Shown here: positions 2,957 through 41,600 of the stretch, piece after piece
Layout: the number at the start of each line of letters is the position of its first letter
Numbering within the stretch: the first letter of the stretch is position 1
DNA from: an uncultured Gammaproteobacteria bacterium
Lineage (GTDB): Bacteria; Patescibacteriota; Microgenomatia; UBA1406; GWC2-37-13
NCBI GenBank assembly: GCA_964349415.1
Contig: CAYGGJ010000001.1
Location: 1 to 53,318, forward strand
DNA length: 53,318 nucleotides
Direction of reading: 5' to 3'
The notes under the pieces: model-generated
Told to the model about the DNA's origin: nothing
Seen by the model: only the letters and a program-made list of their open reading frames with translations
Database searches by the model: none
Program-made: the position numbers and the translations under genes

Positions 2957-2962
2957 AAGAAT

Positions 2963-21888: not shown

Positions 21889-22656
21889 ATGAGACTATCG
21901 CTTTGTATTGCTACGTATAACGAAGAGAGTTTTATTCACTTTCCTCTAGATTCTTCCTACGACTTTGTTGACGAAGTCATTATTGTTGATGGGTCGTCTA
22001 CCGACGGTACCGTAAAAAAGGTCAAATCATATGGGAATAAGGTGAAGGTTTTTACTGAAGAAAACCCTCCGATGTTTCATATCAATAAACAGAAGGCGAT
22101 AGAGCGTAGCGAAGGAGATTGGATTCTGCAGCTTGATGCGGATGAGGCCGTAACACCTGAACTTAAGCGTGAGATTCTGGATGTAGTAACAGGAGGTGCT
22201 GATAAAAAGACAGTAGCCTATTGGATTCCCCGGAAAAACTACTTCTTAGGAAAATTTCTGACCAAGGGAGGCGTTTATCCCGACTACACCATCCGTCTTT
22301 ATAAAAAAGGGGCTGCTCATTTTCCCTGCAAGACAGTACACGAGAATGTAGAAGTAAAAGGCGCAATCGGTTATCTGAAGAACGACCTGCTCCACTATGC
22401 GGATCCTGACTTTGACCGTTATCTGAAGCGTTGGAGAAGGTATACGACTTTGGACGCAAGGATGTTGATCAAAGACAAACAGAAACCTGATCTACTCTCA
22501 TATTTTATATTGAAGCCCATCAAATGGTTTCTCTCTACCTTCATCAGACATAAAGGTTTTATGGATGGATGGCAGGGGTTTGTCTTTTCCTTTATGTCTT
22601 CAATCCGCTTCTTCCGCATCTACACCGAATACCATCGACTTAGGAGCCGATCTTAA
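21889..22656 (+). CDS. Family 2 glycosyltransferase
   Basis: LSLCIATYNEESFI, VIIVDGSSTDGT and LQLDADE (DxD) give the canonical GT2 N-terminal half. Confidence 0.85.
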   Translation: MRLSLCIATYNEESFIHFPLDSSYDFVDEVIIVDGSSTDGTVKKVKSYGNKVKVFTEENPPMFHINKQKAIERSEGDWILQLDADEAVTPELKREILDVVTGGADKKTVAYWIPRKNYFLGKFLTKGGVYPDYTIRLYKKGAAHFPCKTVHENVEVKGAIGYLKNDLLHYADPDFDRYLKRWRRYTTLDARMLIKDKQKPDLLSYFILKPIKWFLSTFIRHKGFMDGWQGFVFSFMSSIRFFRIYTEYHRLRSRS

Positions 22657-23656
22657 AGTCGACAATGTCACCTTCGCGCATTTCATAATCTTTTCCGACG
22701 ATCTGTACTTTACCTTGTTCACGTGACCCCAACCAACCGTTTGCCTGTTTGAAGTCTTCATAAGTAGCAATGTCTGCTTTGATGAATTTCTTCTCAAAAT
22801 CGGTATGAATTACTCCCGCTGCTTGTGGAGCGAGCGTGCCTTTTGTGATAGTCCAAGCACGTACTTCTTTTTCTCCGCCCGTCAGAAACGATATAAGATT
22901 TAGGGTCTCATAGGCTTTCTTTATAAGGTCATTTAAGGTCGTTTCAATAAGGGGATTGAATAAGAGAAAATTGTCAGTCTTTATGAATTCTTTCACTTGC
23001 CTTCCTGTTTCTTCCTTATTTTCAAGCTGTTCGATGGAGCAGTTTACGGCAAAAATCACAGGTTTTGCAGTGAGCAGATTTAGATGGCGGATCATCTCTT
23101 TTTGTTCGCTACTTAATCCTTGAGCGCGTATCGGGACTCCTTGATTTAGCTTTTCCCTTACAGATACAACTACTTCATACAGAGCTGTTTCTTCTTTTGA
23201 AGCATTTGCTCTCGGTTCTTTTTGTTTTTGGAGTGTGGAGAGGTCTGCAAGCATAAGCTCTTCTTCGATGATTTGCATATCTTCTTGCGGATTCACCCGG
23301 TTTGCCACGTGGATGATATCTTTGTCTTCAAAAAGTCTTACTACATGTACAATCACGGAAACCTCACGGATATGAGAGAGGAATTGATTGCCCAGTCCTT
23401 CTCCTTTTGAAGCTCCTTTTACTAGGCCTGCGATGTCATAGAATTCCACGATTGCAGGAACGATTTTACTGGTTTTGACGATTTCCGCAAGGACGGGAAG
23501 TCTCTCATCGGGTACTTCGATTACTCCAACATTTGGGTCAATGGTCGCAAATGGGTAGTTCGCCTCAAGAGCAACTTGTTTCTTCAAAAGTGCATTAAAT
23601 AGGGTAGATTTTCCTACATTCGGAAGCCCCACAATTCCCACACTCAAATTAGCCAT
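22640..23656 (-). CDS. ychF: Ribosome-binding ATPase YchF (shortened, 338 aa)
   Basis: VGIVGLPNVGKSTLFNALL (P-loop), ANYPFATIDPNVG, FYDIAGLVKGAS, and a C-terminal TGS-like IHTDFEKKFIKA...GKDYEMREGDIV. Confidence 0.92.
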   Translation of the reverse strand: MANLSVGIVGLPNVGKSTLFNALLKKQVALEANYPFATIDPNVGVIEVPDERLPVLAEIVKTSKIVPAIVEFYDIAGLVKGASKGEGLGNQFLSHIREVSVIVHVVRLFEDKDIIHVANRVNPQEDMQIIEEELMLADLSTLQKQKEPRANASKEETALYEVVVSVREKLNQGVPIRAQGLSSEQKEMIRHLNLLTAKPVIFAVNCSIEQLENKEETGRQVKEFIKTDNFLLFNPLIETTLNDLIKKAYETLNLISFLTGGEKEVRAWTITKGTLAPQAAGVIHTDFEKKFIKADIATYEDFKQANGWLGSREQGKVQIVGKDYEMREGDIVDFKIGS

Positions 23657-23672
23657 AGATTATTATAGCAGT
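23634..23672 (-). repeat. Copy 1 (functional) of a 39-nt repeat: TATAAT box, ATG and ychF codons 1-8
   Basis: Minus strand reads ACTGCTATAATAATCT ATG GCT AAT TTG AGT GTG GGA AT. It matches 25226-25264 with one mismatch. Confidence 0.9.
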
Positions 23673-23678
23673 ACTTAA

Positions 23679-25058
23679 TTATCTTGAAGTAAAGATGGCT
23701 TTAGTAGGGAGGTGTGAAGAACCATTTTCCTTCTCCTGTCCGCGCCAGTGTTCCCGTACAATTGTCTCTCCATCTTCAAGGGTGACCTTATGGTTTTTCG
23801 CATAAGCGACCGCTTCTTTTGTTGCATGATAGCCCCCAGGAAGACGACGGATGTGCCATGTAACTTTATGTTTGTCTACAAACCTTTTCCTTCCGGAGTC
23901 TTCTCGAGGCGGATATTCGTCAGGTTTGGCGCGGGGGACCACAAGTGTTTTATAGGGAATCTCTTTGATTTTCCCTTTCTTTTTGTCCATTAGTTCTTCT
24001 TCTATATCTACAACAGAAGGTCCTTTTTTAACCAGCTCCGGTCTCTCTGTTAACTCTAGAAAACGGGCAAGATTAAAAAGTCGCAAAAGTTCATACAATC
24101 CTTCAGCGCCTTTCCTTTCAAATACCCTTCGGATAGGTACAGAATCTACTCCTGTTTTTAAATCTCCGTTGGAGTCTACGCCAAACATAACCTGTAGTCC
24201 ATCTATATGAAAATGGTATGAGCTGATTGTGCGGCTTTTATTTCCTACAAGTTCAACTTCCGGTGTTTGAACTTTGTCCGGCGTATATGTAAGGGCAACG
24301 TATCCCAACATATCACGGGGAAGTATCTGATTTGCAGGATGATCGATACTCAAGCGCTCGTCAAAAAAGGTAAAAACCTCATCTTTCTCCAGAAAAAGAG
24401 GAGATGGCGCAAAGCAGTTTTTTAGTCCATATCCACGTGATTCATATAATTGGTCCAAAATCTCGTCTCCTGCCTCTCGGATACTATCGGCATCAAGACT
24501 TTTTATATCAATTCTTTTTTTCATTTTGGCGATCCACTCATACACGGTTTTAATTTCTCTCATTTTTATCTCAAGGTGGCTTAATTTCGGGTAGTACCAT
24601 GCGGCTTCAGTGTCGGGTAGTCGGCCTGCCTGAATTCTCATCATTGCCAGATATCGGTCAGATACCTTTTCTGCATGATCAACTGCGAGATTTGCGACTA
24701 GATTGCCTTGTATGCGATTGATTGTATATACGCTTCTTGGCTTAGTTCGTCTTTCAAGTGGAATATGTATTTCACGTAGAGCACTCATTAAATCTAAATA
24801 TGCAGGAATTGCTCGACGTCTGCTTAATCCTGCTATGTATGTGTCATAGAGATCGTCGGATAATTGAAGCTCTGTTTCAAAGTCCCGAGGACCACGGGTG
24901 AGAAAAGCAAGACGTACTCGATCGTGCAAATCACCTTCGAGATCAAAAGTGGTGGGTTCCGGATATATGACCCAGCGATGGTCTCCAAAGATCTTTTTTA
25001 CCAAAGGATTCTGGATTTCAGATTGCTTTACCTCGACACGCTTATCACGCTCTCCCAT
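23679..25058 (-). CDS. Orphan 459-aa protein (cassette gene 2), function unknown
   Basis: Long clean ORF. ATG at 25058 is preferred over the TTG at 25064. No catalytic motif recognised. The C-terminus is basic (KHKVTWHIRRLPGGYHATKEAVAYAKNHKVTLEDGETIVREHWRG). Confidence 0.75.
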   Translation of the reverse strand: MGERDKRVEVKQSEIQNPLVKKIFGDHRWVIYPEPTTFDLEGDLHDRVRLAFLTRGPRDFETELQLSDDLYDTYIAGLSRRRAIPAYLDLMSALREIHIPLERRTKPRSVYTINRIQGNLVANLAVDHAEKVSDRYLAMMRIQAGRLPDTEAAWYYPKLSHLEIKMREIKTVYEWIAKMKKRIDIKSLDADSIREAGDEILDQLYESRGYGLKNCFAPSPLFLEKDEVFTFFDERLSIDHPANQILPRDMLGYVALTYTPDKVQTPEVELVGNKSRTISSYHFHIDGLQVMFGVDSNGDLKTGVDSVPIRRVFERKGAEGLYELLRLFNLARFLELTERPELVKKGPSVVDIEEELMDKKKGKIKEIPYKTLVVPRAKPDEYPPREDSGRKRFVDKHKVTWHIRRLPGGYHATKEAVAYAKNHKVTLEDGETIVREHWRGQEKENGSSHLPTKAIFTSR

Positions 25059-25176
25059 AACCAAAGTTTATATTATTATAGGATATAAGTCAAGCCTAAA
25101 ATTACCTTATTTAGGCGATGGATTACTATTACGACACCACCTGAACCGTAGGAGGATTGGTCAGTTCAAAAAGGCA

Positions 25177-25248
25177 TTATTTCGTTCTTCGGGTCACAAG
25201 GAGTAGGTAGGATTGTGGATTGACGATTCCCACACTTAAATTAGCCAT
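25177..25248 (-). pseudogene. Decayed duplicate of the ychF 5' end (MANLSVGIV + 14 unrelated codons), or a leader ORF derived from it
   Basis: ATG GCT AAT TTA AGT GTG GGA ATC GTC..., preceded by the same TGCTATAATAATCT. It diverges from ychF after codon 8-9 and stops at TAA (25177-25179). Confidence 0.6.
25206..25230 (-). repeat. 25-nt leader motif shared by the two cassette genes (copy upstream of the 461-aa gene)
   Basis: Minus strand GGAATCGTCAATCCACAATCCTACC matches GGAATCGCCGATCCGCAATCCTGCC at 28954-28978 in 21 of 25 positions. Homology resumes further downstream (GCCTTTTTGAACTGA versus GCCTTTTGAATTGA). Confidence 0.75.
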
Positions 25249-25268
25249 AGATTATTATAGCAGTCCGT

Positions 25269-28200
25269 TTACGCAACGGTGCGGGCGACGAGGGAGTTGT
25301 TTGTAAGGTCATATCCGTTAAAATCAAATCGTTCAGATAAATTAGCGCTTTCATGATAATAATTACGGAAATGATTAATGGTCTGACTGTAATTCGACAT
25401 CGCGCTAGTGTTTCCAGGTATCAATACTCTTTTTTTCCCTCTCTGTTTGGCAAGGTCAGCCATCTTGTCTAAAAATTGTTCGATGAATTTACTCATTTCG
25501 TAATCGTGCTCTTTTGGGACATCAAATCCTCTAACCATAAGCGCACCTTCACCATCTTCAGTATCAACTTCAAACACGAGAACTGATCCGATAAATTTCG
25601 GGAGTTTGGTAACTGGATCAACCGTGACAAATTTATATGGGACTACTTCTCGGTTACGAAGTAGAGGATAGACTGCTGTATAGCAAACGTCGGCCAGATA
25701 TCCTGACATCTCACCGATAAATCCCCGGTCCGGAATAGCTTTTATTTCCAAATTAGTTTGGCCTCCTGAAATTTGAAAGCGTTCAACTGCCTCTTTGAGT
25801 CTAGAGTAGTATGGTTCAAAAATATCTCTCAGTTTTTCCTTGTTAGCGCGCATCGCCTCTGCGGTTTCCGGAGGCCAATACTCCTCGAGCCCTCCTTTAA
25901 CATTGATGACATGCTCATGAATTGGATCCTTAATCAAATCTACTACCGACAGTATTTGTTGGGGCAATATATTATTAGGAGGTTGTACTGAGGATAGAAT
26001 AGATGTAATTTGATCCTTCAGGTGTGGGTTTTGTAGAAATATCTTTTTAAAAATAAGCCCTCTTAAGATACCGTTCATTTCAGGGCGTTCGCTCTTATCC
26101 ATCTTCATAGCAACGACAGCACTCATGAGAGAATCCATTGAATCAACTCCATCGAGACTGTTATAGTAGGTTTGGAATCGAGAAAGTTCTTTTTCTAAGT
26201 GCTCTTTTTTCTTCCCATCGGCTTCCTTTAGAGTTTCTTCAATCTTTTCAAGCTTATTTCTTAAGAGTCCCTTAACATCTGGTTTGATATCTTTATATTT
26301 AAGAATAGAACGCAAGCTTTTCTGAATGTCGTGATACAACACATGGAAATCATCAGCTACTTCCGATGAGTCAAATTTTATCTTTACCTCTTGTAATAGG
26401 ATAGTTTCTGGCTTATAACCCTCGGGCAGAGGACTTATCCTGCCCTCTTCCATATCTTTCTCAAAATCCGAGATGATTTCCTGAAACGAATGTCTGCCAT
26501 TATCAAAACGGTGAGAGGCTTTACCGGTGACCACCCGTAGATTGGCCAGCTCAAAAGCGGTTAGTTGAGAGGGATGAAGAATGGGTTCTTCTCCGTAGGC
26601 TAATACTTTCATTCGCTCCATTGCGGCAAGAAGATCTGCTTTGGTATCAATTCCTTTTCCTGCGATGTCTGCCGGGAGTTCTTTAATTAGTCCTTTTTCA
26701 AGAAGCGTAAGTTGTTTAAAGTAGTGAAAGACATGAAGATCTTTACTTAATCCAAATTGTTCAACGTATTCGGCAACGATTTCCATATCTCGTGTAGTAA
26801 AAGTAAAAAAATCTTTATAGTTTTGATTGCCCTTAAGTAGAAACTCCATAAATTGAGATGCTCGATCGTACTCATTGTGCAAAAATGCATTTCGACGCTC
26901 ATCAGACTCAGTGGGTAGGGCCTTTAAAAATCTTTCAACTACTTCTTCACCCAATGCGTCTTTCCATTCCTGTTTACCTGCTCTTTCACAAAATACCTCT
27001 GGGGCCTCCAGCGCCCATTGGCGTAGCCCCTCATCTCCATAAATCTCTGTCCATTCCGTTCTTGTTGCAGTCTCTATAAATTTGTCTTTTGCTTCCTCTT
27101 TCCATTTTTTCATTCCTTCATTTCCAAAGGCGGCTCTCCATTGATCAGCGCCTGCAACGCTGATAAATGCCGATCTGTTTACTTCCAACACCGTCCTCAT
27201 AAGTAGGGGATAATGTTCATTTGCACCTACTAAAGGCTGAGATTGTTCGAATCCCGATCTAACCTCACCCTCCGGGAAAAATTTAGCGTAGTTTTTTACG
27301 AGAAACTCTATTTGATCATATGAAAGATCTGAAGTTAAGGCGAACTTATAAAAATTTACTTGATTCATAGTAAGATGATATTCGTCAGGTACAAACTGGG
27401 ACTCTGTAATTTTTTTGCTTACAAATGCCATTTTTTTAAGACTTGCTATTGCGCGATCCCGTTCATCAGGAGTTATATCTTTTTTATTCAACGTTTCCAA
27501 ATCAGCATCCAAAATACTCGCTTTTTTATTTCCTATATATTTGTCTGTGTACTTGACTGCGCTTGGGATTCTATAAAAAGCATTTCTTTCCTCCTCTGTA
27601 AGGATGCCGGCGTCTTTTAATCCATTTTCATCTATGTGGACACTTTGCGCGTTAAGAAAATCGACAAGTTGGGGATCGTCAGAAACAGACGTAAGCCCCA
27701 AATGTAACGGGATCATAAATCTATTTTTAAACCTCCACTCAAGTTCAAATAAATCTTTTTGTTCGCCAGACAAACGTCTTTCATTAATCTTCAATTCTCT
27801 TAGCTCGTTTTCAATAGATTGCAACTCCGGATAAGTATCCATCGTTTTTGCGACTATCTCGTCCCAGTTTCCTTTTTCCTTCATCTTGAGAAGCGCGTGC
27901 ATGGCATTGTTATCTTTCGAGAGTCTTGTGTAACGTCCCATACTTCCATATTCGTCTGTTTTTCTGGTATCAAAGGCATTTATCGCGATCAAACGTCTTA
28001 TGACAAAAGGAGTAGGATTGCGAGATAAATACTCAATTGCGAGTGAAGGTTCTGCTGCATAATACCGCTCGTCCCAATCTGCTCCGCGATAAGCCCGTCT
28101 CTCCTCGAAGCATATCGACATAGCGTCGTCATCAACCTCCTGTTTTATTCGGTCGAGAATATCTTCATCAAAGAATTTACGAAAGACGGTGGTTTTTTCT

Positions 28201-28895
28201 TTCCCACGCATTCCTGAAAGAAGTGCAAGACGATCCTTGATGAGGTTATTAACGGGAAAACCCATCTTAACGAACTCGTAGTATCCAAGACTGTGAAATT
28301 CACGTGCAAAGTTATACGCCGGATTATGTTCGATCACCCCGTCTAAGCGATACTGCTTTAGTACTTCTTCGCACTGATCCTTGAGGGGGTTATATTTTTC
28401 CTTCTTTTCTTGGTACTCTGATTTGTCAGCTCCCTTCAGTTCAGCCTCGTACTTTTTATAATCAAAATACGCTTGATGGGCTTCTTGTAATTCTTTATCA
28501 GAAAGCGCAGGATTTATATACTTCATGATCTCTACTCCTTCCGGGGTCTCAAAAACTTCTGTATAGTAATCATAGAAAACTGTTGTGCTCGCATCTCTTA
28601 AGTCGCGAATTTCTTCGCGGGTTTCTTGCGGAATCTGATGCCATTTCTTTCCGGCTGTGTTTTTTGCAATCTCCTTTAATTGTCCGCGAATTTCATCCAG
28701 GCGCGCCCTGTAAGGGTCTTTGTGATCTTTGACTTCTATCTCTGTGTAATTTTTTGGGTTGTCCTTATCCTTGGAATCTTGGGGAGGTTGGTTAAAAGAG
28801 GCGAGCTTGTCGAGCACTTTTTTGGTTGGATCAGATTGTTGAGGAGCTGGCTTTTCAAGAACCGCAGTAGGAGTACCTTCACGAGGCTCAGCCAT
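25269..28895 (-). CDS. Orphan ~1208-aa protein (cassette gene 1), function unknown
   Basis: Uninterrupted 3.6-kb ORF. ATG at 28895 (MAEPREG) is preferred over the TTG at 28913. No TM helices and no motif I can name. Confidence 0.8.
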   Translation of the reverse strand: MAEPREGTPTAVLEKPAPQQSDPTKKVLDKLASFNQPPQDSKDKDNPKNYTEIEVKDHKDPYRARLDEIRGQLKEIAKNTAGKKWHQIPQETREEIRDLRDASTTVFYDYYTEVFETPEGVEIMKYINPALSDKELQEAHQAYFDYKKYEAELKGADKSEYQEKKEKYNPLKDQCEEVLKQYRLDGVIEHNPAYNFAREFHSLGYYEFVKMGFPVNNLIKDRLALLSGMRGKEKTTVFRKFFDEDILDRIKQEVDDDAMSICFEERRAYRGADWDERYYAAEPSLAIEYLSRNPTPFVIRRLIAINAFDTRKTDEYGSMGRYTRLSKDNNAMHALLKMKEKGNWDEIVAKTMDTYPELQSIENELRELKINERRLSGEQKDLFELEWRFKNRFMIPLHLGLTSVSDDPQLVDFLNAQSVHIDENGLKDAGILTEEERNAFYRIPSAVKYTDKYIGNKKASILDADLETLNKKDITPDERDRAIASLKKMAFVSKKITESQFVPDEYHLTMNQVNFYKFALTSDLSYDQIEFLVKNYAKFFPEGEVRSGFEQSQPLVGANEHYPLLMRTVLEVNRSAFISVAGADQWRAAFGNEGMKKWKEEAKDKFIETATRTEWTEIYGDEGLRQWALEAPEVFCERAGKQEWKDALGEEVVERFLKALPTESDERRNAFLHNEYDRASQFMEFLLKGNQNYKDFFTFTTRDMEIVAEYVEQFGLSKDLHVFHYFKQLTLLEKGLIKELPADIAGKGIDTKADLLAAMERMKVLAYGEEPILHPSQLTAFELANLRVVTGKASHRFDNGRHSFQEIISDFEKDMEEGRISPLPEGYKPETILLQEVKIKFDSSEVADDFHVLYHDIQKSLRSILKYKDIKPDVKGLLRNKLEKIEETLKEADGKKKEHLEKELSRFQTYYNSLDGVDSMDSLMSAVVAMKMDKSERPEMNGILRGLIFKKIFLQNPHLKDQITSILSSVQPPNNILPQQILSVVDLIKDPIHEHVINVKGGLEEYWPPETAEAMRANKEKLRDIFEPYYSRLKEAVERFQISGGQTNLEIKAIPDRGFIGEMSGYLADVCYTAVYPLLRNREVVPYKFVTVDPVTKLPKFIGSVLVFEVDTEDGEGALMVRGFDVPKEHDYEMSKFIEQFLDKMADLAKQRGKKRVLIPGNTSAMSNYSQTINHFRNYYHESANLSERFDFNGYDLTNNSLVARTVA

Positions 28896-28942
28896 ATTAT
28901 TTAATCCTAACAAATATCACGTAAAGATGTGAGATAGTAGGA

Positions 28943-28993
28943 TCAATTCAAAAGGCAGGATTGCGGATCGGCGATTCCTATTTTGAGATTCAT
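28943..28993 (-). pseudogene. Second, more degenerate ychF 5'-end remnant or leader ORF (MNLKIGIADPQSCLLN*)
   Basis: ATG AAT CTC AAA ATA GGA ATC GCC GAT CCG CAA TCC TGC aligns with copy B MANLSVGIVNPQSYLL (one-codon deletion). It is preceded by an ATAATA box. Confidence 0.4.
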
Positions 28994-29011
28994 GATATGC
29001 TATTATAAAGT

Positions 29012-29806
29012 ATGGTTAGCAAGAAGCCAAAAAAGTTTTGGTGGTTACTGCTTCTCCCGCTCTTTATTGTCTTTTTCTACATGGTCATGGGGATTGTCTT
29101 TTCGGGGCCGCCTACTCAGGAAGAGTTAAGCGAAAAGTTCATAGTAGTAAACCCGCTTGATCTTTCGCAAATAAGAGGATTTTCCAAATACAGAAGCTGT
29201 ATGGGACACGATTATCGCGCTCCATTGGTTTCAGGCCCAAAGGAATCCACACCTCGTTCAATGAAGCATTACATAAAAGTGAAGGAAGAGTTAATGGGCA
29301 AAAACGGTGTCGTAAAAGCGATAGCACCTTTTGATGGTAAGATTTCTAACATTGAAAAAAGGGATCCAGAACGTACCTCCACCGATCAGCAGATTTGGTT
29401 GAGTCCCAACGCAAACGATGCTTCGCCAAGATTATGGCATTTTGTCTTTTTTCACATAGATCTTAGAGACGACCTTAAGGAAGGGTCTGTGGTAAAGGCA
29501 GGTGAAACTATTGGTACCGCAACTTTGGCAAGAGGACCTGAGAAAACTACCGACAATTTTGATATGGCTGTCAAATTTACACGGCCTATGGCAGAGCCAT
29601 CCATAGATGAACCATTTGCGCATATGTCAGACGAAGTATTGTCAGAATATCGCCAATACGGCATAACTCCGTCTAACGTCATAATTTCAAAGGAATACCG
29701 AGATCAGAATCTTTGTCCAACGATAGATAAGGTTGTAGGAGGAGATATCTATTTCCCACCAAACACCGATCCCAACGATATAGTCTACTTACAAGAATCT
29801 CTTTAA
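29012..29806 (+). CDS. Signal-anchored protein with a possible degenerate LytM/M23-like domain
   Basis: TM anchor (FWWLLLLPLFIVFFYMVMGIVF). VVKAIAPFDGKISNIE...WHFVFFHIDLRDDLKEGSVVKAGETIGTA resembles the M23 'v.A...G.V......i.H......Y.Hl....v..G..V..G..iG' strand order, but the HxH motif is absent. Confidence 0.4.
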   Translation: MVSKKPKKFWWLLLLPLFIVFFYMVMGIVFSGPPTQEELSEKFIVVNPLDLSQIRGFSKYRSCMGHDYRAPLVSGPKESTPRSMKHYIKVKEELMGKNGVVKAIAPFDGKISNIEKRDPERTSTDQQIWLSPNANDASPRLWHFVFFHIDLRDDLKEGSVVKAGETIGTATLARGPEKTTDNFDMAVKFTRPMAEPSIDEPFAHMSDEVLSEYRQYGITPSNVIISKEYRDQNLCPTIDKVVGGDIYFPPNTDPNDIVYLQESL

Positions 29807-33678: not shown

Positions 33679-34107
33679 ATGGACGACAGAAGATCTTCAA
33701 AATTCGGACTCGGATTACTGCTCGGTGCCGTTGGTGGTGCGCTTGCCGGAATATTTTTATCCCCCAAATCAGGAAAGGCTATGAGAAAAGACGCTAAGAA
33801 AAAGTATGATGAGCTTATGAAATTAATGAAGGATAAAGAAGTGGATAGAAAAGTCAAAGCAATCTTTGGTAATGTCACCACGGAATCAAAAAAACTCTAT
33901 GAGCAGGTAAAAGAAGAGCTTGTTTCCAGACTTGCTCAGATGAAGAAAGATATTGATAAAAATACATACGTTAAACAGGTTGAAAACGTTGTAGACAGCC
34001 TCAAAAGTCCACTTTCCAAACAGTCAGTAAGCGCTGCTAAAAAACTTAAAGACTCACTGTCCAAAGATTGGACAAAGCTCGAAAAATCTCTCAAAAAACC
34101 GAACTAA
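33679..34107 (+). CDS. YtxH-domain protein
   Basis: GLGLLLGAVGGALAGIFLSPKSGKAMRKD is the YtxH N-terminal motif. It is followed by a charged helical region. Confidence 0.75.
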   Translation: MDDRRSSKFGLGLLLGAVGGALAGIFLSPKSGKAMRKDAKKKYDELMKLMKDKEVDRKVKAIFGNVTTESKKLYEQVKEELVSRLAQMKKDIDKNTYVKQVENVVDSLKSPLSKQSVSAAKKLKDSLSKDWTKLEKSLKKPN

Positions 34108-34113
34108 AGCCTC

Positions 34114-34142
34114 TTGACAGGCAACTTCTCCAGTGGTATCTT
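34114..34142 (+). promoter_or_regulatory. Promoter candidate of small Cys-rich paralog 1 (near-leaderless)
   Basis: CCTCTTGACAG context. TTGACA (34114-34119), 17 nt, TATCTT (34137-34142), then 8 nt to GTG at 34151. The layout is duplicated at 34521-34549. Confidence 0.5.
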
Positions 34143-34150
34143 CAAACTAA

Positions 34151-34492
34151 GTGGCTAAAAAGAAATCCAAAGTAAGGCTCCGCCCTATCTTACTCCTCCT
34201 ACTTACTTCCTTAATCGCTATTGCCGTTATCGCAATAGGATACAGTAAAACTTTTGGATCAAGCGCAAAGAACAAGAAGAAATGCTCTCGTCTTGAAAGA
34301 TTGTTCGAAAGCTGCGATACGTGGGTTACAAAGGGAGCAGCAGGATCTCCAATGGGTATCTTAGATGTGCCGTCAGGAGAATCCTTACCAACGGTGGGAA
34401 AAAACTCAATATGCAGGTTAAACGGCATTTTAGAAGCACATTGTCAAAAAGGGTTGCAGTGTAAAGGAAGCCCAAAAGGCAAATGCAAATAA
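34151..34492 (+). CDS. Small signal-anchored Cys-rich secreted protein, paralog 1
   Basis: GTG start. MAKKKSKVRLRPILLLLLTSLIAIAVIAIGY ... LPTVGKNSICRLNGILEAHCQKGLQCKGSPKGKCK. It is colinear with the next gene. Confidence 0.7.
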   Translation: MAKKKSKVRLRPILLLLLTSLIAIAVIAIGYSKTFGSSAKNKKKCSRLERLFESCDTWVTKGAAGSPMGILDVPSGESLPTVGKNSICRLNGILEAHCQKGLQCKGSPKGKCK

Positions 34493-34520
34493 AGCGCCGT
34501 CAAAAATCAACTAAATCCTC

Positions 34521-34549
34521 TTGACAGTCTATTTATATAATGTTACCTT
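34521..34549 (+). promoter_or_regulatory. Promoter candidate of small Cys-rich paralog 2 (near-leaderless)
   Basis: TTGACA (34521-34526), 17 nt, TACCTT (34544-34549), then 8 nt to GTG at 34558. The upstream CTAAATCCTCTTGACAG matches CTAAAGCCTCTTGACAG of paralog 1. Confidence 0.5.
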
Positions 34550-34557
34550 CAAGCTAA

Positions 34558-34944
34558 GTGGCTAAAAAGAAATCGAAAAAGAACCTTCGCGCCCTTCTCC
34601 TTTTACTTCTAGCAGGTTTAATCATAATTGTTGTCGTAGCAATCGGCTACAGACAGATATTTGGTTCCAAAGCGGCATCGAGATGTTCTACTCGCCTTGA
34701 AAGGTTGACAGAAAGAGACTGTGGAGGTAATGAAGGAACAGGAGCAGTAGCGGGCACGGTCGATAGTGGATCTAGGGGATGTGGGCCCAATTGCGCTGGT
34801 GTCATAGATGAGGGGGGCGCAGGAAAATCATCTGAGCGGCCAACAGTCGGAAAAAACGGAATTTGCAAAGAAGACAATAAACTGGTAGCTTTTTGTAAAC
34901 AGGGGTTGCAATGTAAAGGTAGCCCCAGAGGTAAATGTAGATAA
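34558..34944 (+). CDS. Small signal-anchored Cys-rich secreted protein, paralog 2
   Basis: MAKKKSKKNLRALLLLLLAGLIIIVVVAIGY ... RPTVGKNGICKEDNKLVAFCKQGLQCKGSPRGKCR. Confidence 0.7.
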   Translation: MAKKKSKKNLRALLLLLLAGLIIIVVVAIGYRQIFGSKAASRCSTRLERLTERDCGGNEGTGAVAGTVDSGSRGCGPNCAGVIDEGGAGKSSERPTVGKNGICKEDNKLVAFCKQGLQCKGSPRGKCR

Positions 34945-35362: not shown

Positions 35363-37525
35363 TTAAACCTTCCTTCCGTATTTTTCTTTTGAAAGCTGCA
35401 TTATCTTATCCTTGTTCTCGTTTTTAAGCTTAGGAAGGGGAAGTGTTTTGGCAGGAAATGGCGCAGAGGTCATGTCGTCAATCGAAAGCTTCAGGACAAT
35501 CTCATATTTACCTAAAGAGACGAGATCATTTTCAGAGTAAATCTCGGCAAATTCCTTTGTAAGAATCTCGGCATCGCGTGCTCCAACCACAAATGATATG
35601 AGTGTTCCGACATTGCCAAAGATAGCCATCTGGACTTCCTCATCAAGCTGTTCAATGTATTGATTGGCCAAGGTAAGACAGAGACGGTATTTTCTCGCCT
35701 CAGAAAGAATCTTGATAAATGAGGTAGTGGCAAAGTTTTGAAACTCATCGACATAGAGAAAAAAGTCTCGTCGCTCATCCTCTTTTTGATAGGAGCGGTT
35801 CATCGCAGCAAGCTGAATCTGCGTGATTATCATCGCACCAAGAAGGGCCGCATTGTCTTCGCCGAGCTTACCCTGCGAGAGATTCAGGATCAATATCTTC
35901 CCGTCATTCATGATCTTTTCAAGGTCAACCGAAGACTTGGATTTTCCGATGATGTTTCGTATCATTTTTGAGGATACAAACTGTCCGACCTTGTTTTGAA
36001 TAGGGGACACAGCCTCGGCTCTCAGCTTATCAGACATTTTTTCAAACTCCTTTTCCCAAAAGTTTTTTATGACAGGATCGGTGACATGTTCGGTTACTAC
36101 CTTTTTGCGGTATTCTGCATCAGAAAGAAGCTTGAGAACGTCTACAAGAGTCGCATCCGGTACCTCAAGAAGCGCTAAAATAACGTTTCTTAAAATATAC
36201 TCAAGTCTCGGACCCCAGCTGTCGCCGTAGATTTTGTAGAAAATAGATACAATTCCTGAGGCTACTAGATCCTTATGCTGCTTATTCCTGACTTCAAGAA
36301 TGTTAAGTGAAAATGGCCTTTCAGTGTCAAAGGGCTCAAGATAGACCACGTCTTTCATCCTGCGTTTGGGAATGTAATCTAAGATTGTCGAGGACAGATC
36401 TCCGTGAGGGTCAATTATAGCTACTCCACGGCCACGGCGGATATCATCTATGGCCATATTGGCCACAAGGGTTGATTTTCCGGCTCCGGTTTTACCCACA
36501 ATGTATACATGCTTTCTCCGGTCAGGTGTTTTGACACCCATAACAGACTCTTTATTTTTAAACTCGGTTTGAGCAAAGAAATTGACATCATCCTTTTCTT
36601 TATCGGTGAAATCCTGGGCTACCGGAATATTCTCTGGAGGCTCTCCTGACAATGTCTTTCCCCATGCTATGTTTCTGATTCCTGAGAGTAAAAAGCCCGG
36701 TGGATGCCAGAGCGTGGCAAGCTCCTGAGCGTTTAGAATCTGTCTCTCCCGTTCAAAAAAATAGGACGATCTTTTCTTCACTCGTTCAAGAAAGTTTTTC
36801 TTAAAAAGACGCTTTTTTTTGAAAACCAGTTGATTTCCTTCACCGAGCGAAAAGTTTCCGAAGGTGCCTGCAAGATTGCGCAAGTAGGACATAGTGGGTT
36901 TGGTGTCAGAGGTCGTAATGATGCGGATAAGACTTCGTCCTCCTTGAAATGCAGCCTTCTTCATAACCGTCATCTTCTGAGGGTTTAGGCCGTATTTGTC
37001 GGCTGTCGCATCATAGGCCATTTTCTTTGCTGCTTCCACTGCTTGATCCTGCCAAGCAAAAGTTGCAGGATCCACGAGAATCTGGATCGCCATCTTGATA
37101 TCAGCCGGCTGTTTTGATAAAAACCCGATCAGTGACGAAAGAGGATCAATATCCTTAAAATCAAAATATGTCTTTATGGGAAAATAAGAGTAGGAGTTTA
37201 GAACGAGCTCACCCTCAGAGACATGCTTGGACTTTAAGATGATATTCATCGGATCCGTTGTTTTTTTCAACAGGGATTGTGGATATGATGATGTTACAAG
37301 GCTTTGAACAAAGGTATCGGATTCGGAAGGCGCGGTAATATAAAAATAAATAGTTTGGTTAATAAGGTAGAGCTCAAATGAATAGGTTTTAGGCTTTAAA
37401 AGAGGTCTTTTCCACAGTGGAATATAGGGGTAGGAGAGAAGCGAGGCAAATATTTGGGTGGCTGATTCTATTGGGGTTTCGCTGTCTTTAGGATTTCGAA
37501 TCTGAAAGTGTGAGAGATTCTTCAT
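35363..37525 (-). CDS. VirD4/TraD/TraG-like P-loop NTPase (type IV coupling-protein-like)
   Basis: HVYIVGKTGAGKSTLVANM (Walker A), AIIDPHGDL, FFLYVDEFQNF (Walker B) and ARKYRLCLTLANQYIEQL (TraG/TraD C-terminal block ..R..g..l.l..Q...Ql). Confidence 0.75.
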   Translation of the reverse strand: MKNLSHFQIRNPKDSETPIESATQIFASLLSYPYIPLWKRPLLKPKTYSFELYLINQTIYFYITAPSESDTFVQSLVTSSYPQSLLKKTTDPMNIILKSKHVSEGELVLNSYSYFPIKTYFDFKDIDPLSSLIGFLSKQPADIKMAIQILVDPATFAWQDQAVEAAKKMAYDATADKYGLNPQKMTVMKKAAFQGGRSLIRIITTSDTKPTMSYLRNLAGTFGNFSLGEGNQLVFKKKRLFKKNFLERVKKRSSYFFERERQILNAQELATLWHPPGFLLSGIRNIAWGKTLSGEPPENIPVAQDFTDKEKDDVNFFAQTEFKNKESVMGVKTPDRRKHVYIVGKTGAGKSTLVANMAIDDIRRGRGVAIIDPHGDLSSTILDYIPKRRMKDVVYLEPFDTERPFSLNILEVRNKQHKDLVASGIVSIFYKIYGDSWGPRLEYILRNVILALLEVPDATLVDVLKLLSDAEYRKKVVTEHVTDPVIKNFWEKEFEKMSDKLRAEAVSPIQNKVGQFVSSKMIRNIIGKSKSSVDLEKIMNDGKILILNLSQGKLGEDNAALLGAMIITQIQLAAMNRSYQKEDERRDFFLYVDEFQNFATTSFIKILSEARKYRLCLTLANQYIEQLDEEVQMAIFGNVGTLISFVVGARDAEILTKEFAEIYSENDLVSLGKYEIVLKLSIDDMTSAPFPAKTLPLPKLKNENKDKIMQLSKEKYGRKV

Positions 37526-37548
37526 ATAAAAAGTATACTGATAATTAA

Positions 37549-40413
37549 TTAAGATTTGTCCCGTTTTAATAGGATAAATAATAATGTCCCCGCAAGTAGT
37601 CCTAAACCCAGATATTCAAGATACTGCGGCCAGAACACGATAGAAATTTTCCCGCTTAAGCCATCCAGTACCCAGCCGTTTGCCCAGTTGTTTATCAGGA
37701 CATGTCGCTTCAATTCTTTCCCATTTCGATATGCTTTCCAACCATTATCAAATGCCTGGTTGAGAATGATGACACCGTTTTTTTGAGCGGGTGAAACCGT
37801 GTAGTTACCGTAGTTTTTCTTTTCAGCCGTAAAATCATTAAAAAACTGTGCTTGTCGCACCTCATCTCCCTTTTTCAAAAGTGCAAGATTCTTAAGAACT
37901 TCATAAGGAAATGCATATATTTCAAGTCCGTTTACCTGATTTACCGAAGGAAAGTTTTTATACGAATTGCTCTGGAATGTGAAGCCGTAACCCACACCGT
38001 ATTGAAATTTCGGACTTAGGAAAAAATATTCCTTGTCTAATTGCAGTCTGTCTTCAAGATAACTTTGTTTTTTTGTACTATCGATTATGTAAAAGAAGAG
38101 ATTTCTTCCCTCGACCGTCTTGCTTTGTACCGTCACAAGATATCCGTATCTTTGTTCTAAATAAGGGTCACCGTAGCCAAAACATGCAATGGCTCCGTCT
38201 CTTGCTTCCACCTGAAAGCCATCTGGAGTCGACTGTTTATTAATCTTTCCCTCGGATTGTTCACAGTTTGCTACTTTTGTTTTTGAGGGGTCAAACTGCG
38301 ATACAAGAACCTTGGGAACCCGTGCGGAAATAGTGTCCTTTCCTAATTCGATCTGATAGCCCACATGGTATGTTTTTACCCCGCCCGGAGAGTTGAGAAG
38401 CATTTCATAGATTCCTGCGGAGGAGGTTGAGGTTCTATATTGATTCATATCAACATCAAGAGGAGCCTTTAATACGAACTCTTTTTCGGTTTCGGTGAGC
38501 TTCCATTTTCTATTTGCACGTGTCTGACTCATAAGATTTCTAAAGGGGTAATGTAGTTGTGGGTTAGCATCGGTCAAGTAGCCATGCGTTTGTTCGTAAA
38601 CGGTGTCACCATACTCAGCGTTGACCTCAGGCCCCACAGATGGCAGGTGAGAGGCATGAGAGATGAAGTCCTGAGTCTTATGGGGAAGAGTTACCTGGTA
38701 GATGTCAAGGTACTTTCCGGTCCTCACGCGCACCAACTCCGGTGATCTGCGCAAAAGATCTTCAAGGTTTTCATACTGAAGACTTCTGCTTATCGAAGAA
38801 ATCGGAAGGTACGACTTATCCAAGAGGACATATTCAACATTATATTTCTGCAGAGTATTTACAAGAGCCACTCTGTCTTCTGCCTCCACCGCAGCTTTAA
38901 GCTCCCAAAAGTACCGTTCGCTCGGAGCGCTCCAAACATCAAAGGCGCGTGCCAGTATCGGCTGTTCAATTCCATACCACAGAAATCCTGAGCCGTTATA
39001 GCCCCAGCTGTGGTAAAACCAGCCCCAGAATGTATAGTCCGGAAGAAGGGCAATCCTCTTGTTTTTATCCTGACCTTTAAAATAATCTACTGCCTCAAGA
39101 TATTCCGAGGGAACACGAATTTTCATTGACGGTGAAAAGAAATATCCTCTGAATGTCGGAAGAGAGTAGAGGAAGATAAGTCCGATGACAATATATGGCG
39201 CAATATTTCTTCCTTGTCTTGAAAGCTTTTTGCCAAGAAAATCTATACCTTGCGCAAAGAAAAAACTTGAGACCAAAGAGTAGAGCACTATAAATTTAGT
39301 AAAAGGAGAACGAAAGACCTGATTTATGAGAGGGTTGCTACGGAAAAAACCGCCCAACTCTCTAAAAATAGGAGTGGCAGAAAGAAGCGCTACGGCACAA
39401 ACTCCATAAACAAACAGGTAGTTTTTATTTCTCAATCCACCAGTAAATAAGCCTAAAAGAACGACTGCAGACAAAAGATAAGAGACAATCATAAAAGGAA
39501 CTTGTTTATAGTGATCGTGCCATTCCAGAAATAGTTGTTGCTTGTTGGATCTGTAAAGATCAAAGTAAAATCCTTTAAGAGTGATAAAGTCGGGGACCGT
39601 TCCCTTTTCCAGATTCTGATAAAAGACATCCTCGGTAGCGAGTTGATTTATCTTTGCCTGTTGGACAACGCTTCCGTTTGCTTTTACAAAATAAAGTTGT
39701 GGAAAGAGCCAAAAAGCATTGACCATAAACACTACAGTAAGCAAAATCCCTATTTTTTTTAGCGATTCAACAGATCTGTTTTTCACCATATATGCCAAGG
39801 AAAAACAGAAAAGCGTAAGACCATAAACTAGAAAAAGTGTCTGAAGATAAGCCTGTGGAGTAGCAAGGAAATTAATAAGCATAAACAATAGAAGGTTTTT
39901 TTTAGTCAGCTTTTCGTTGAGGGCTTTTTGAAATATCCATAGCTCCCATGGAAGTGCCGCAAAAAACCAGGAAAACGGTTCAAAAGGAACGTAGAAAATC
40001 TGCAGAGTTCCAAGATTCAACATATAAAAAAGTGCTCCCGCCAAGGAAGCTTTTTCATTTACCGGTTGTTTTAATCTGAGAAGTTTAAGTGCACCGATTG
40101 CACCCACTGCAAGCAGTGCTGTATGGATGAGATATCGTATCAAAGATTGGGGTACAAAAAGAGAGAGGATTCCAGTTAATACAGCCCTTACTAAATCAGA
40201 AGCGTGTGCCATTCCTCCAACCAAACCTAAGCTTTGATACTCTTGCCAGACCGCAAAAAAAGCACGCTTTATCGCAAGTGCCGGATTAAGTTCGGTCGAG
40301 AGATGATCCCACCCGATAAGATACGTGTTGGGCTTAACATTTAGTACGAAAATACCCACCGCAACCACGACAAGAGAAATCACAGAAAAGTACCGTTTTA
40401 AGAAAGATCTCAT
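37549..40413 (-). CDS. Large polytopic membrane protein, probable GT-C-fold glycosyltransferase (YfhO/arabinofuranosyltransferase-like)
   Basis: About 12 or more N-terminal TM helices, a large extracytoplasmic beta-rich domain and a final C-terminal TM helix. Its ATG at 40413 overlaps the upstream gene's TAA (TAATG), and it follows GT2 and GT4 genes in the same operon. Confidence 0.65.
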   Translation of the reverse strand: MRSFLKRYFSVISLVVVAVGIFVLNVKPNTYLIGWDHLSTELNPALAIKRAFFAVWQEYQSLGLVGGMAHASDLVRAVLTGILSLFVPQSLIRYLIHTALLAVGAIGALKLLRLKQPVNEKASLAGALFYMLNLGTLQIFYVPFEPFSWFFAALPWELWIFQKALNEKLTKKNLLLFMLINFLATPQAYLQTLFLVYGLTLFCFSLAYMVKNRSVESLKKIGILLTVVFMVNAFWLFPQLYFVKANGSVVQQAKINQLATEDVFYQNLEKGTVPDFITLKGFYFDLYRSNKQQLFLEWHDHYKQVPFMIVSYLLSAVVLLGLFTGGLRNKNYLFVYGVCAVALLSATPIFRELGGFFRSNPLINQVFRSPFTKFIVLYSLVSSFFFAQGIDFLGKKLSRQGRNIAPYIVIGLIFLYSLPTFRGYFFSPSMKIRVPSEYLEAVDYFKGQDKNKRIALLPDYTFWGWFYHSWGYNGSGFLWYGIEQPILARAFDVWSAPSERYFWELKAAVEAEDRVALVNTLQKYNVEYVLLDKSYLPISSISRSLQYENLEDLLRRSPELVRVRTGKYLDIYQVTLPHKTQDFISHASHLPSVGPEVNAEYGDTVYEQTHGYLTDANPQLHYPFRNLMSQTRANRKWKLTETEKEFVLKAPLDVDMNQYRTSTSSAGIYEMLLNSPGGVKTYHVGYQIELGKDTISARVPKVLVSQFDPSKTKVANCEQSEGKINKQSTPDGFQVEARDGAIACFGYGDPYLEQRYGYLVTVQSKTVEGRNLFFYIIDSTKKQSYLEDRLQLDKEYFFLSPKFQYGVGYGFTFQSNSYKNFPSVNQVNGLEIYAFPYEVLKNLALLKKGDEVRQAQFFNDFTAEKKNYGNYTVSPAQKNGVIILNQAFDNGWKAYRNGKELKRHVLINNWANGWVLDGLSGKISIVFWPQYLEYLGLGLLAGTLLFILLKRDKS

Positions 40414-41600
40414 TATTGAGAGAGAACTTGTGCGTATTTTTTTCCTATACGTTCCCACGAGCGGGCTTCTTTCATAGTCTTAGAAAAGCCTACTGTTTTT
40501 TCAAGGTTTTTTCTAATCCAATTCATTTTTTCGTAGAAGTCTTCCTTATTAAGTTTAAAGACAAGATTGCTTTTGGATACGGGGTTTTCTCTCAATGATT
40601 TTTGAAAATCATTACTATCAAAGTATCCTTCAAGTGCCTTTGAAAGAAGTACGGGTTTTTCAAACGAGAACGCAATGGAAAGTGGACCTGAGGAAGACAT
40701 GAAGGTTTTGTACGGAAGTACAACCAGATCACAGGCAGAAAAATATAAAGGTATGCGCTTCTCAGACACAAAGCCAGTCGTTATAATTCCCTTTTGATGG
40801 GCTTTTTTCTTAAGGGCAGTTACGAACTTTGAATAACTTCGCTTGTTTGCATGATTTGGATTGTGACCACCAGCAAGGATAAGATGAACGTTCTGGTATT
40901 TCTCCCACATATTTACCATAGAATCCATTCCTTTATAAGGCGAGATGTATCCAAAAGAGAGTACGTAAAAGCTGTTCTTTTTAAGTCGCAGTTTTTTTCT
41001 GGCCTCAGTCTTTCCTATTTTTTTCATTGTCTCCACGGCATGGGAAATCACCACAACCTTTTCGTCATTGTGAAGAAGTTCTTTAAATTTCTTTTCAAAT
41101 ACGATGGTCCTAAAAGAAACAAAAAGAAGCAGGGGGTAGAAGAAAGCTCTGGCTAGATTGAGGATAAATGCCTTAACGGGTTTTTTTTCAAAAGGCCGGA
41201 AATCAGCTATTACCTGATGAAGGATTAGATATATTTTCTTCTTGTTTAATTTCCATAGAAGAAGCAGATATACAAAAAAGAGCGCGTGGAGCATGTTGCC
41301 AAACATATACCCTTCAAAAGGCACAATAATTCCATCGGAAGGGCGTTCATTGACCGCCTTATACAGACTCCAAAGGCTTGCGAAACTTCCTCTTTTCCAG
41401 ACGCGTTTTATGATCATACCGTTTTCCTTGTATACCTCTTCCTTTTCCAGGGTTTCAGCCCAGACAGTGATCCTAAGATCTTTGTGATAGCCTGTAAGAG
41501 CCTTTAAGGTGTTTTTGGTATAAGAGGCTACACCTACGGTATTTTTTCCATGAGTCTGGTTTTTTTCAGGGTAGCTTGAGATTATAAAAAGTCTTTTCAT
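40413..41600 (-). CDS. Family 4 (GT-B, group 1) glycosyltransferase
   Basis: N-terminal FIISSYPEKNQTHG...GVASY and a C-terminal LILAGG...GFVSEKRIPLYFSACDLVVLPY...SSGPLSIAFSFEKPVL layout, typical of GT4. Confidence 0.75.
   Translation of the reverse strand: MKRLFIISSYPEKNQTHGKNTVGVASYTKNTLKALTGYHKDLRITVWAETLEKEEVYKENGMIIKRVWKRGSFASLWSLYKAVNERPSDGIIVPFEGYMFGNMLHALFFVYLLLLWKLNKKKIYLILHQVIADFRPFEKKPVKAFILNLARAFFYPLLLFVSFRTIVFEKKFKELLHNDEKVVVISHAVETMKKIGKTEARKKLRLKKNSFYVLSFGYISPYKGMDSMVNMWEKYQNVHLILAGGHNPNHANKRSYSKFVTALKKKAHQKGIITTGFVSEKRIPLYFSACDLVVLPYKTFMSSSGPLSIAFSFEKPVLLSKALEGYFDSNDFQKSLRENPVSKSNLVFKLNKEDFYEKMNWIRKNLEKTVGFSKTMKEARSWERIGKKYAQVLSQ

Follow-up and report, generated by a model that had tools for sequence, protein, structure and literature searches.

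We analysed the 5′ region of the conserved gene ychF in a contig of 53,318 nucleotides (nt) from a bacterium of the Candidate Phyla Radiation (CPR; contig CAYGGJ010000001.1 of assembly GCA_964349415.1, deposited as an uncultured Gammaproteobacteria bacterium and placed by GTDB in Patescibacteriota, Microgenomatia, UBA1406, GWC2-37-13); this whole stretch is hereafter the window. Read along the minus strand, the locus comprises a divergent gene for a protein of 264 amino acids (aa), a partial copy of the ychF start (remnant A), a 1208-aa gene (p1214), a second partial copy (remnant B), a 459-aa gene (p461) and ychF itself (Table 1). The two intervening genes are slightly shorter than the 1214 and 461 aa given in the original prediction, which had been made from the letters of this stretch: from their ATG codons they encode 1208 aa (28895-25269) and 459 aa (25058-23679). 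Downstream of ychF, gene order is kept in relatives (glycosyltransferase, DsbB, def, rpmB etc.); the stretch from ychF up to the YtxH gene is highly variable among them. The resident YchF is 99% identical to P0009 and 86% identical to that of the nearest other species, and among species-representative genomes its nearest counterpart comes from Candidatus Roizmanbacteria (64% identity).

Table 1 Features of the ychF locus, with proposed cassettes delimited at the switch points in the site alignments (att, attachment site)
Feature	Position	Strand	Description
Resident intact ychF	22640..23656	-	338 aa, MANLSVGIVGLPNVGKST...; Pfam MMR_HSR1 and YchF-GTPase_C
Functional site copy (attR-like)	23631..23672	-	Extended -10 promoter TGCTATAAT, TATAAT 23662-23667, ATG 23654-23656, codons 1-8
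Proposed cassette 2, ~1.59 kb	23634..25225	-	Long-form X_B; 459-aa gene with its own promoter; promoter and start that replace those of ychF
Cargo gene p461	23679..25058	-	459 aa from ATG 25058; TATAAT 25075-25080
Remnant B, middle site	25151..25264	-	25226-25264, promoter and codons 1-8 (MANLSVGI), 40/42 to resident; 25151-25225, X long form
Proposed cassette 1, ~3.75 kb	25226..28973	-	X_A (short form), 1208-aa gene, ychF promoter/start copy that is now the left part of remnant B
Cargo gene p1214	25269..28895	-	1208 aa from ATG 28895; uncharacterised large-protein family; predicted GNAT-like fold at extreme C-terminus
Remnant A, outermost site (attL-like)	28941..29030	-	-35 TTGGCT 29025-29030; -10 TATAAT 29002-29007; ATG 28991-28993; MNLKIGI; GGAAT 28974-28978
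Gene for 264-aa membrane-anchored protein	29012..29806	+	Divergent; outer boundary of the array, outside it

A repeat search of the window recovered a direct repeat of 42 nt (23631-23672 versus 25223-25264; 40/42 positions identical) that covers the ychF promoter and codons 1-8. The near-identical copy of the ychF start that had been described earlier is real, with its length corrected from 39 to 42 nt. The 39-mer has exactly two matches in the window at ≤3 mismatches and none in 100 shuffles. The other segment reported as shared by the two remnants, the 25-mer GGAATCGYCRATCCRCAATCCTRCC, holds as described, occurring only at 25206-25230 and 28954-28978 and never in shuffles. This 25-mer reaches into a block that follows the ychF-like part of each remnant (block X), and local alignment of the two blocks, X_A and X_B, gave p ~0.002. 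A BLAST search of the whole 53-kb window against itself returned three repeats in all, the ychF-start block among them, so this block is not a generic promoter motif, a possibility raised at the outset and also at odds with the counts of the 39-mer and the 25-mer. The arrangement recurs unchanged in another assembly of this organism (L090; loci other than the window are designated by L numbers), 99.84% identical over 23.6 kb. The ychF-start repeat is real and not a product of chance.

The two remnants differ in composition. Remnant B is chimeric, its left part resembling the resident ychF start and its right part the X of remnant A. Its long X (CGTCAATCCACAATCCTACC...TGCCTTTTTGAACTGACC) is homologous to sequence in two related loci (L172 6505-6599; L179 5390, 7349 and 8319), and the remnant translates to MANLSVGIVNPQSYLLLVTRRTK followed by a stop. 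The short X of remnant A (28941-28973, CGCCGATCCGCAATCCTGCCTTTTGAATTGATC) is near-identical to L172 8152-8212 and L175 5013-5075; this remnant encodes MNLKIGIADPQSCLLN and a stop, and MNLKIGIVG is a normal YchF N-terminus among relatives. Its promoter is the best sigma-70-like match of the region (10/12). In the functional copy, GGAAT (23634-23638) leads into the ychF-type continuation ATTGTGGGG. There, 5 nt separate TATAAT from the ATG, which would leave the ychF messenger RNA with little or no leader, as also in relatives. For ychF of the window (23662-23656) and of L012, L013, L015, L017, L020, L022, L023, L171, L173, L174 and L176, the extended -10 box, TGnTAnAAT, stands 5-8 nt ahead of the ATG, in each case with no Shine-Dalgarno sequence; judging from these start regions, ychF mRNA in this group is probably leaderless.

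Close relatives were found via YchF, and their contigs were fetched and compared. These loci are polymorphic, as serial insertion had led one to expect. Several have no cassette beside ychF: a divergent gene lies 40 nt upstream in L171 (86% YchF identity) and 38 nt upstream in L176/L177, and in L174 it follows a 112-nt intergenic region. A matched comparison is that of L174 with L172, whose ychF genes share 82% nucleotide identity. The upstream gene, the promoter and codons 1-7 of L174 align with the flank of a far remnant in L172, located 3.5 kb upstream of ychF; the homology ends at GGRAT and picks up again 3.5 kb on, in the body of ychF. After the far remnant, L172 contains the X block known from the window, two genes split by a second remnant, and the ychF body preceded by a new promoter, leader and start. 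The cargo there is a pyridoxal-phosphate cysteine-synthase-like enzyme and a 532-aa protein, both antisense to the remnants. Since the far remnant of L172 sits in the native promoter context that is intact in L174, it represents the displaced original start.

A profile built from the remnants of the window and L172 detected an independent copy in L175 (E 1.5e-11) and four copies in L179 (E 6e-10 to 3e-5). The L175 remnant lies upstream of a major facilitator superfamily transporter gene that directly precedes ychF. In L179, which has one further, X-less pseudocopy of the ychF start, the copies delimit MazE/Fic (twice), an AAA ATPase, a 244-aa protein, a Gp49/helix-turn-helix pair (HigBA-like) and an NTP_transf_5 protein. 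The number of cassettes is thus two in the window and in L172, one in L175 and at least five in L179. X-bearing remnants of the four species always lie just upstream of ychF and in its orientation, and cargo differs between the cassettes of the four loci and occurs in either orientation; cassette 2 of the window is not present in L171, L172, L173, L175 or L179. The YchF proteins of L172, L175 and L179 are each only ~70-77% identical to that of the window. The start module ATGAAATTAAGTTGTGGAATCGTC is the same in L175 and L179 (24/24) and matches at 22/24 positions in L172.

Two further observations concern the starts of relatives. In L173, a 356-aa S-adenosylmethionine (SAM)-methyltransferase-like gene (2560-3703) lies directly upstream of ychF, with the stop-to-promoter spacing seen in the window cassettes and a similar promoter (CTGTTATAATAGTC versus CTGTTATAATACTC). 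In L172, the 62-nt leader between ychF promoter and ATG (9939-10000, and 8090-8127) looks like an older start remnant with ATT for ATG; it contains TGTGGGATTGTG and has a copy within the near remnant. Being non-significant against shuffles (p 0.13-0.57), this leader was not accepted as another remnant.

The anatomy of the site is conserved across these loci. In all X-bearing remnants (9/9), the ychF-like part spans ATG to GGR-AT, and many copies start earlier, from an extended -10 box 5-30 nt upstream of the ATG. The switch from ychF-type to X-type sequence comes after GGAAT, which corresponds to codon 7/8 in the window ychF and codon 6/7 in relatives; insertion at the ychF 5′ end had been proposed, with the exact point placed slightly too far on, after codon 8. 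The junction dinucleotide is the same in all four clade species and also in L136, a distant locus. Nearly all X-linked copies read GGRATCGTC, then (A)GTCCACAATCCTGCC...TTTTGAAATGA, with slight deviations in remnant A of the window (GGAATCGCC) and in two L179 copies (GGAACGGTC, GGGACCGTC). Most functional ychF copies read GGRATTGTK (TGTG/TGTT) and then GGNCTNCC, the exceptions being L173 and L176. The X consensus is CGTCAGTCCACAATCCTGCC[0 or ~36 nt]TTTTGAAATGAGCGTAA, such that short and long forms are a ~36-nt internal segment apart. Both forms are present in the window and in L172, in reversed order and with different cargo.

Block X itself does not appear to derive from ychF. A reading of X as decayed ychF codons 9-27, suggested by eye from the likeness of TAATGCCTTTTTGAA to TAATGCACTTTTGAA, was discarded after comparison with shuffles (p 0.15-0.32), and an X-only nhmmer profile had no match among eight functional ychF starts; the ychF-like look is confined to the first ~12 nt of X. 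Across the junction, four of six remnants have an inverted repeat of 5-7 bp whose arms change together (TTGTGGA/TCCACAA, TTGCG/CGCAA, and TCACT/AGTGA in the distant L136). This pattern hints at paired recombinase-binding arms, with weak statistics. The dead stubs encode peptides of 16-23 aa, and short 'ORFs' (open reading frames) of the MANLSVGIV.../MNLKIGIA... type are best annotated with caution, as scars and not as genes.

We next considered where the duplicated starts come from. Across nine pairs of remnant and resident starts, 43 changed codons were synonymous and 8 non-synonymous, where ~23% synonymous would be expected under random change (binomial P 2e-20). Such mostly synonymous change indicates that both copies evolved as working ychF starts in different lineages before meeting. 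Judged by these codons, the duplicated starts are xenologous and not decaying local duplicates. The initial interpretation of the farthest remnant as the most decayed one has accordingly to be refined: remnant A is a different bona fide ychF start allele that has been displaced, with mostly synonymous differences. It follows that the first ychF codons in these genomes can be of foreign origin, giving mosaic starts.

Similar duplications occur in more distant CPR genomes, as revealed by a self-search of ~156 ychF loci for 5′ partial duplications. In L023 (Gottesmanbacteria), ~44 codons are duplicated, with 2 kb and two antisense genes between the copies; in L136, 6 codons are duplicated around an NYN-domain gene, with the junction again after GGC-AT. 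L010 (Roizmanbacteria) has 13 duplicated codons and a 100-nt insert that holds no cargo, and L081 (Kerfeldbacteria) 10 duplicated codons and a ~85-nt insert with a promoter-like repeat that also occurs upstream of a folD-like gene. The ychF loci (2.24 Mb) contain 181 short direct repeats, of which 9 have the downstream copy in the ychF -45..+140 zone versus ~2.4 expected; this lends only modest support to an enrichment in the ychF start zone, some of the 9 being promoter-only. Together, the distant duplications and this enrichment suggest that the ychF start is a recurrent landing place. The L081 repeat itself measures 24-30 nt (CTAAAAGCTAACAGCTAYAAGCTAYAA; 8472-8501, 9929-9943 and 9960-9989), stands upstream of both the folD-like gene and ychF, and has an inverted partial copy nearby; it may be a small mobile promoter element.

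For the cargo of the window, searches returned few recognisable functions, and p461 and p1214 proved unrelated when compared as possible relatives. We found no Pfam, NCBIfam or PHROG match for p461 and no PDB sequence-profile match, and its AlphaFold2 model (8 sequences; predicted local distance difference test, pLDDT, 69) had no Foldseek match in PDB or BFVD. By Pfam, PHROG, NCBIfam and fold, it contains no homing endonuclease domain (LAGLIDADG, GIY-YIG, HNH). Seven homologues with 32-38% identity each occupy a different genomic context, including fusA/tuf and tRNA-Pro surroundings, which suggests that the p461 family behaves like mobile cargo. In L001 (Levybacteria JACPDD010000020.1; 4040-5520), fusA and tuf are separated by an insertion of a 474-aa homologue and a 281-aa gene. 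The 474-aa ORF closes with CCGCCCAGCAATAAT, which repeats the final four fusA codons and stop (CCGCCCAGCAGTAAT); located at the 3′ end of a gene, this 15-nt direct repeat resembles one of the att type. In L005 (4307-4382), another p461 homologue ends with its stop codon right against the tRNA-Pro(cgg) 3′ end, with no clear partial tRNA copy on the opposite side. The 3′ end of a tRNA gene is a classic integration position.

In a word-indexed search, the sole match of p1214 was itself. A HMMER search against 1.8 billion representatives identified 269 homologues of its C-terminal ~580 aa, and this conserved module (window 25269-27080) is found in representative proteins of 1000-7400 aa. Pfam detected no domain in p1214 or in those of its homologues that were tested. 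The AlphaFold2 model of the C-terminal 603 aa (pLDDT 84.8) was matched by Foldseek to GNAT acetyltransferases and toxins (AtaT, TacT) with probabilities of 0.9-0.99 and weak E-values; since these matches are consistent, the last ~140 residues are predicted to adopt a GNAT-like acetyltransferase fold similar to AtaT/TacT toxins. A recombinase-like fold, which had been suggested as something to look for in these proteins, was not seen, p461 matching no fold and the modelled C-terminal part of p1214 ending in a predicted GNAT-like one. Overall, the cassettes contain just p461 or p1214 and no element-encoded integrase, p461 having neither a recombinase domain nor a recombinase fold. In a viral collection, there were no p461 relatives and no junction-spanning GGRATCG...CAATCCTRCC pattern; one 18-mer match (L178) lies inside a phage gene and was dismissed as chance.

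On balance, we consider it probable that the two-cassette array was built up as small non-autonomous cassettes inserted site-specifically, one after another, within the first ychF codons. The serial insertion of related elements, each with a replacement promoter and start, as put forward in the original prediction, is supported by the alleles of the relatives. The site anatomy, its conserved junction, the existence of uninterrupted as well as occupied alleles, the changing cargo and orientation and the foreign source of the starts are observed, and a circular intermediate, the type of enzyme and the direction of array growth are inferred. Each cassette can be pictured as a circle with one composite site, consisting of a ychF-like promoter/leader, an ATG and ~7 codons up to GGR-AT, followed by X. 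Recombination with the resident ychF start, in or beside the shared GTGGGRAT core, would split this composite site: the old ychF promoter and start would stay upstream, fused to X as a dead stub, and the promoter and start of the cassette would join the ychF body in frame, so that the gene remains whole. Were another insertion to follow at the restored site, the first cassette would be moved outward, leaving the newest one adjoining ychF. Under this scheme, remnant A would be the displaced older start plus the X of the p1214 cassette, remnant B the start brought by the p1214 cassette plus the X of the p461 cassette, and the present ychF start the one brought by the p461 cassette. As no such enzyme was found in the cassettes or nearby, it would have to act in trans, and catalysis might come from a recombinase encoded elsewhere, such as a tyrosine recombinase of the host's Xer type, a serine recombinase or the enzyme of another mobile element. 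By mimicking the ychF promoter and start, cassettes would never inactivate the gene upon insertion, and the conservation of ychF would guarantee a site in every recipient.

Several observations weigh against this scheme. As the original prediction had noted for the window, no recombinase was recognised, either among the ORFs of the 53-kb window (Pfam on most window ORFs ≥120 aa and the cargo, a few ORFs being covered by the precomputed L090 annotation only) or in the precomputed annotation of the L090, L172, L175 and L179 loci. The duplicated length varies in distant CPR (6, 10, 13 and ~44 codons), unlike what one enzyme with a fixed core would produce. The inverted repeat is short, and the best one reaches at least 5 nt in ~29% of shuffles when position is ignored. 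No single-strand structure is conserved among the sites: DNA folding of 5 remnants on both strands gave z-scores of -1.4 to +1.3, and RNAalifold on 6 long-form sites predicted 3 pairs with no covariation. In addition, the co-oriented gene upstream of ychF in L173 shows a similar junction layout with no X detected, and the window and L090 assemblies do not differ at the array.

The most serious alternative is insertion driven by homology, in which DNA from related CPR cells with cargo beside a ychF 5′ fragment would enter by a RecA-type single crossover (Campbell-like) or by homology-facilitated illegitimate recombination, duplicating the 5′ piece, and the conserved junction and X would go back to one old event followed by exchange of cargo between remnants. 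Such a route would account for the lack of a recombinase in the cassettes and the examined loci, and for duplications of 6 to ~44 codons as fragments of arbitrary length; indeed, the variable length in distant CPR keeps this explanation alive. Synonymous divergence is just as compatible with donor DNA of a related lineage, and the GC content of the cassettes equals that of the host (0.406 for cassette 1 and 0.41-0.42 for the two cassettes, versus 0.426 for the whole window). However, identity at the junction extends over only ~11-42 nt, at or under the usual need of RecA, and X, having no detectable similarity to ychF, would provide no homology arm in a naive recipient. The use of the same dinucleotide in four clade species and in the distant L136 likewise speaks against this route, and the swaps of X-form order and cargo between the window and L172, along with near-identical start modules across species, argue for repeated exchange at the level of cassettes. 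We therefore regard homology-driven insertion as unlikely, with a chance that still deserves attention, and favour site-specific insertion of cassettes.

Other explanations fare worse. Reuse of a duplicated ychF promoter and leader peptide to drive or regulate both orphan genes, with no mobile element, had been offered as an alternative from the start, and it is appealing in that each remnant of the window precedes a co-oriented gene and the region's best sigma-70-like promoter, in remnant A, is directly upstream of p1214. This idea is largely refuted by L172, where both cargo genes are antisense to their remnants, and it would leave the L174/L172 insertion allele unexplained; leader peptides are not conserved, differing at 3/4 changed codons in X and in their stops, p461 has its own promoter, and there is no conserved RNA structure, all of which makes it very unlikely. 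Local copying of the ychF 5′ region in tandem, with subsequent decay and with genes later arising or landing between the copies, would fit direct repeats of a gene start on one strand with the outermost copy differing most from the resident. We judge it highly improbable, as 43 versus 8 codon changes denote two functional alleles instead of a decaying copy, remnant B is chimeric, X is not ychF-derived by any test, and the L174/L172 alleles contradict it. Finally, the window is metagenome-assembled and repeats can cause misjoins, so that a chimeric contig joined at a short repeat might be suspected. The chance of such an artefact is negligible given the same order in a second independent assembly at 99.84% identity, equivalent arrays in independent data sets (Logan, NCBI), and a 42-nt repeat that is below the k-mer length used (contig names carry k141).

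CPR genomes are tiny and have few recognised mobile elements, and their gain of accessory genes is poorly understood. The ychF locus represents a recurrent and precise route of gene gain, through which transporters, enzymes, toxin-antitoxin modules and large orphan proteins are acquired at the start of a universally conserved gene that remains undisrupted. More tentatively, the locus could be a CPR/Patescibacteria counterpart of the integron, i.e., a gene-capture platform docked in the first codons of ychF and served by a host enzyme in trans or by a new recombinase family that escapes recognition; the 460-aa p461 family would then be one candidate recombinase. If a dedicated or co-opted recombinase is indeed at work, the X motif offers a handle for finding the enzyme by co-occurrence, the hidden pool of cassettes in metagenomes could be catalogued, and the system might be turned into a tool for inserting DNA in organisms still lacking genetics.

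Around the array, the divergent 264-aa protein has a hydrophobic N-terminal helix, no Pfam or NCBIfam match and no homologue in any fetched locus. Rfam and tRNA scans found nothing near the array, hence neither a tRNA nor a tmRNA gene is targeted here. Just past the YtxH gene, an 81-nt direct repeat (34091-34171 / 34500-34578; 81% identical) spans the promoters and GTG starts of two tandem paralogues (34151-34492, 113 aa; 34558-34944, 128 aa) whose products are small, Cys-rich and membrane-anchored, a case of simple tandem duplication of a gene. Near the variable region, 35363-40458 encodes a DUF87/TrwB-like ATPase (720 aa), to which L175 has a similar sequence, and a 969-aa protein with no Pfam match. 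Elsewhere in the window are a 2470-aa ORF (5638-13050) with a Ser/Thr protein kinase domain around residues 1752-2010, and a 55-nt imperfect palindrome (43622-43676; 80%) in a GC-rich stretch (GC 0.51, 42-44 kb).

Compared with described systems, our survey of the literature on integrons and gene cassettes in Patescibacteria, and on ychF as an integration site, found nothing describing this arrangement. There is precedent for elements that enter a conserved gene at its 5′ end and provide it with a new one, namely SXT/R391 at prfC and the dusA islands (PMC2791158, PMC4482086). Like these elements and the dusA prophages, the ychF cassettes would insert site-specifically in a housekeeping gene's 5′ end; the array is bounded by direct repeats of the target segment, and the gene is restored by an element-supplied promoter and 5′ codons. 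However, SXT and dusA elements measure 10-100 kb and carry their own tyrosine integrase beside the att site, whereas the ychF units span 1.6-3.7 kb with 1-2 cargo genes and no recombinase and, unlike them, form stacked arrays in which five or more may be present. Upstream of ychF, neither annotation (L172, L173, L175, L176 and L179) nor inspection (L023, L136, L010 and L081) revealed a parent element with an integrase. ychF or its upstream region has also been reported as attachment site for pipolins with large serine recombinases and for a pneumococcal satellite prophage (PMC11551731, PMC10383233); those belong to other phyla, have their own recombinases, are much larger and are not known to be linked to the X motif.

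As in integrons, the array consists of compact, mostly single-gene and unrelated cassettes, toxin-antitoxin modules included, with related bounding sites at one fixed position. Integrons have intI beside the array and attC hairpins; the ychF array has no adjacent intI, and its sites do not fold as attC. Integron cassettes rely on Pc, whereas ychF cassettes bring promoters, and the insertion point, unlike that of integrons, lies within the coding start of an essential gene that each cassette rebuilds. The Acinetobacter dif modules and IMEX, as portrayed in the cited accounts, also lack a recombinase of their own, a trait shared with the ychF cassettes; they carry accessory or toxin-antitoxin genes between flanking recombination sites and are shuffled among replicons, presumably through an enzyme of the host (PMC13141974, PMC6449649). 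The dif modules have 28-bp XerC/XerD sites, often inverse and mostly on plasmids, whereas the ychF sites are direct repeats of a start mimic. By eye, the conserved ychF site has no TTATG-type XerD arm and no 11-6-11 palindrome, the known dif pattern, which may not be that of CPR; the array does not lie at a GC-skew switch and hence not at a terminus. Tycheposons in the islands of Prochlorococcus, a streamlined genome, integrate successively and push older elements outward, leaving partial target copies and integrase-less remnants (bioRxiv 10.1101/2020.12.28.424599). The ychF array likewise stacks with target remnants at one site, whereas tycheposons target a tRNA gene and encode a tyrosine recombinase in intact members. 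Overall, the ychF array resembles integrons, SXT/dusA-type elements and tycheposon-type elements, but intI and an attC fold, an element-encoded integrase and an integrase-bearing parent element, respectively, were not found in the loci examined, so that it is placed in none of these families. Site-specific, target-restoring integration of cassettes is known as such; what is distinctive is the combination of the ychF start as target, a site that mimics this start, integrase-less cassettes mostly of one or two genes, their assembly into arrays, and a CPR host.

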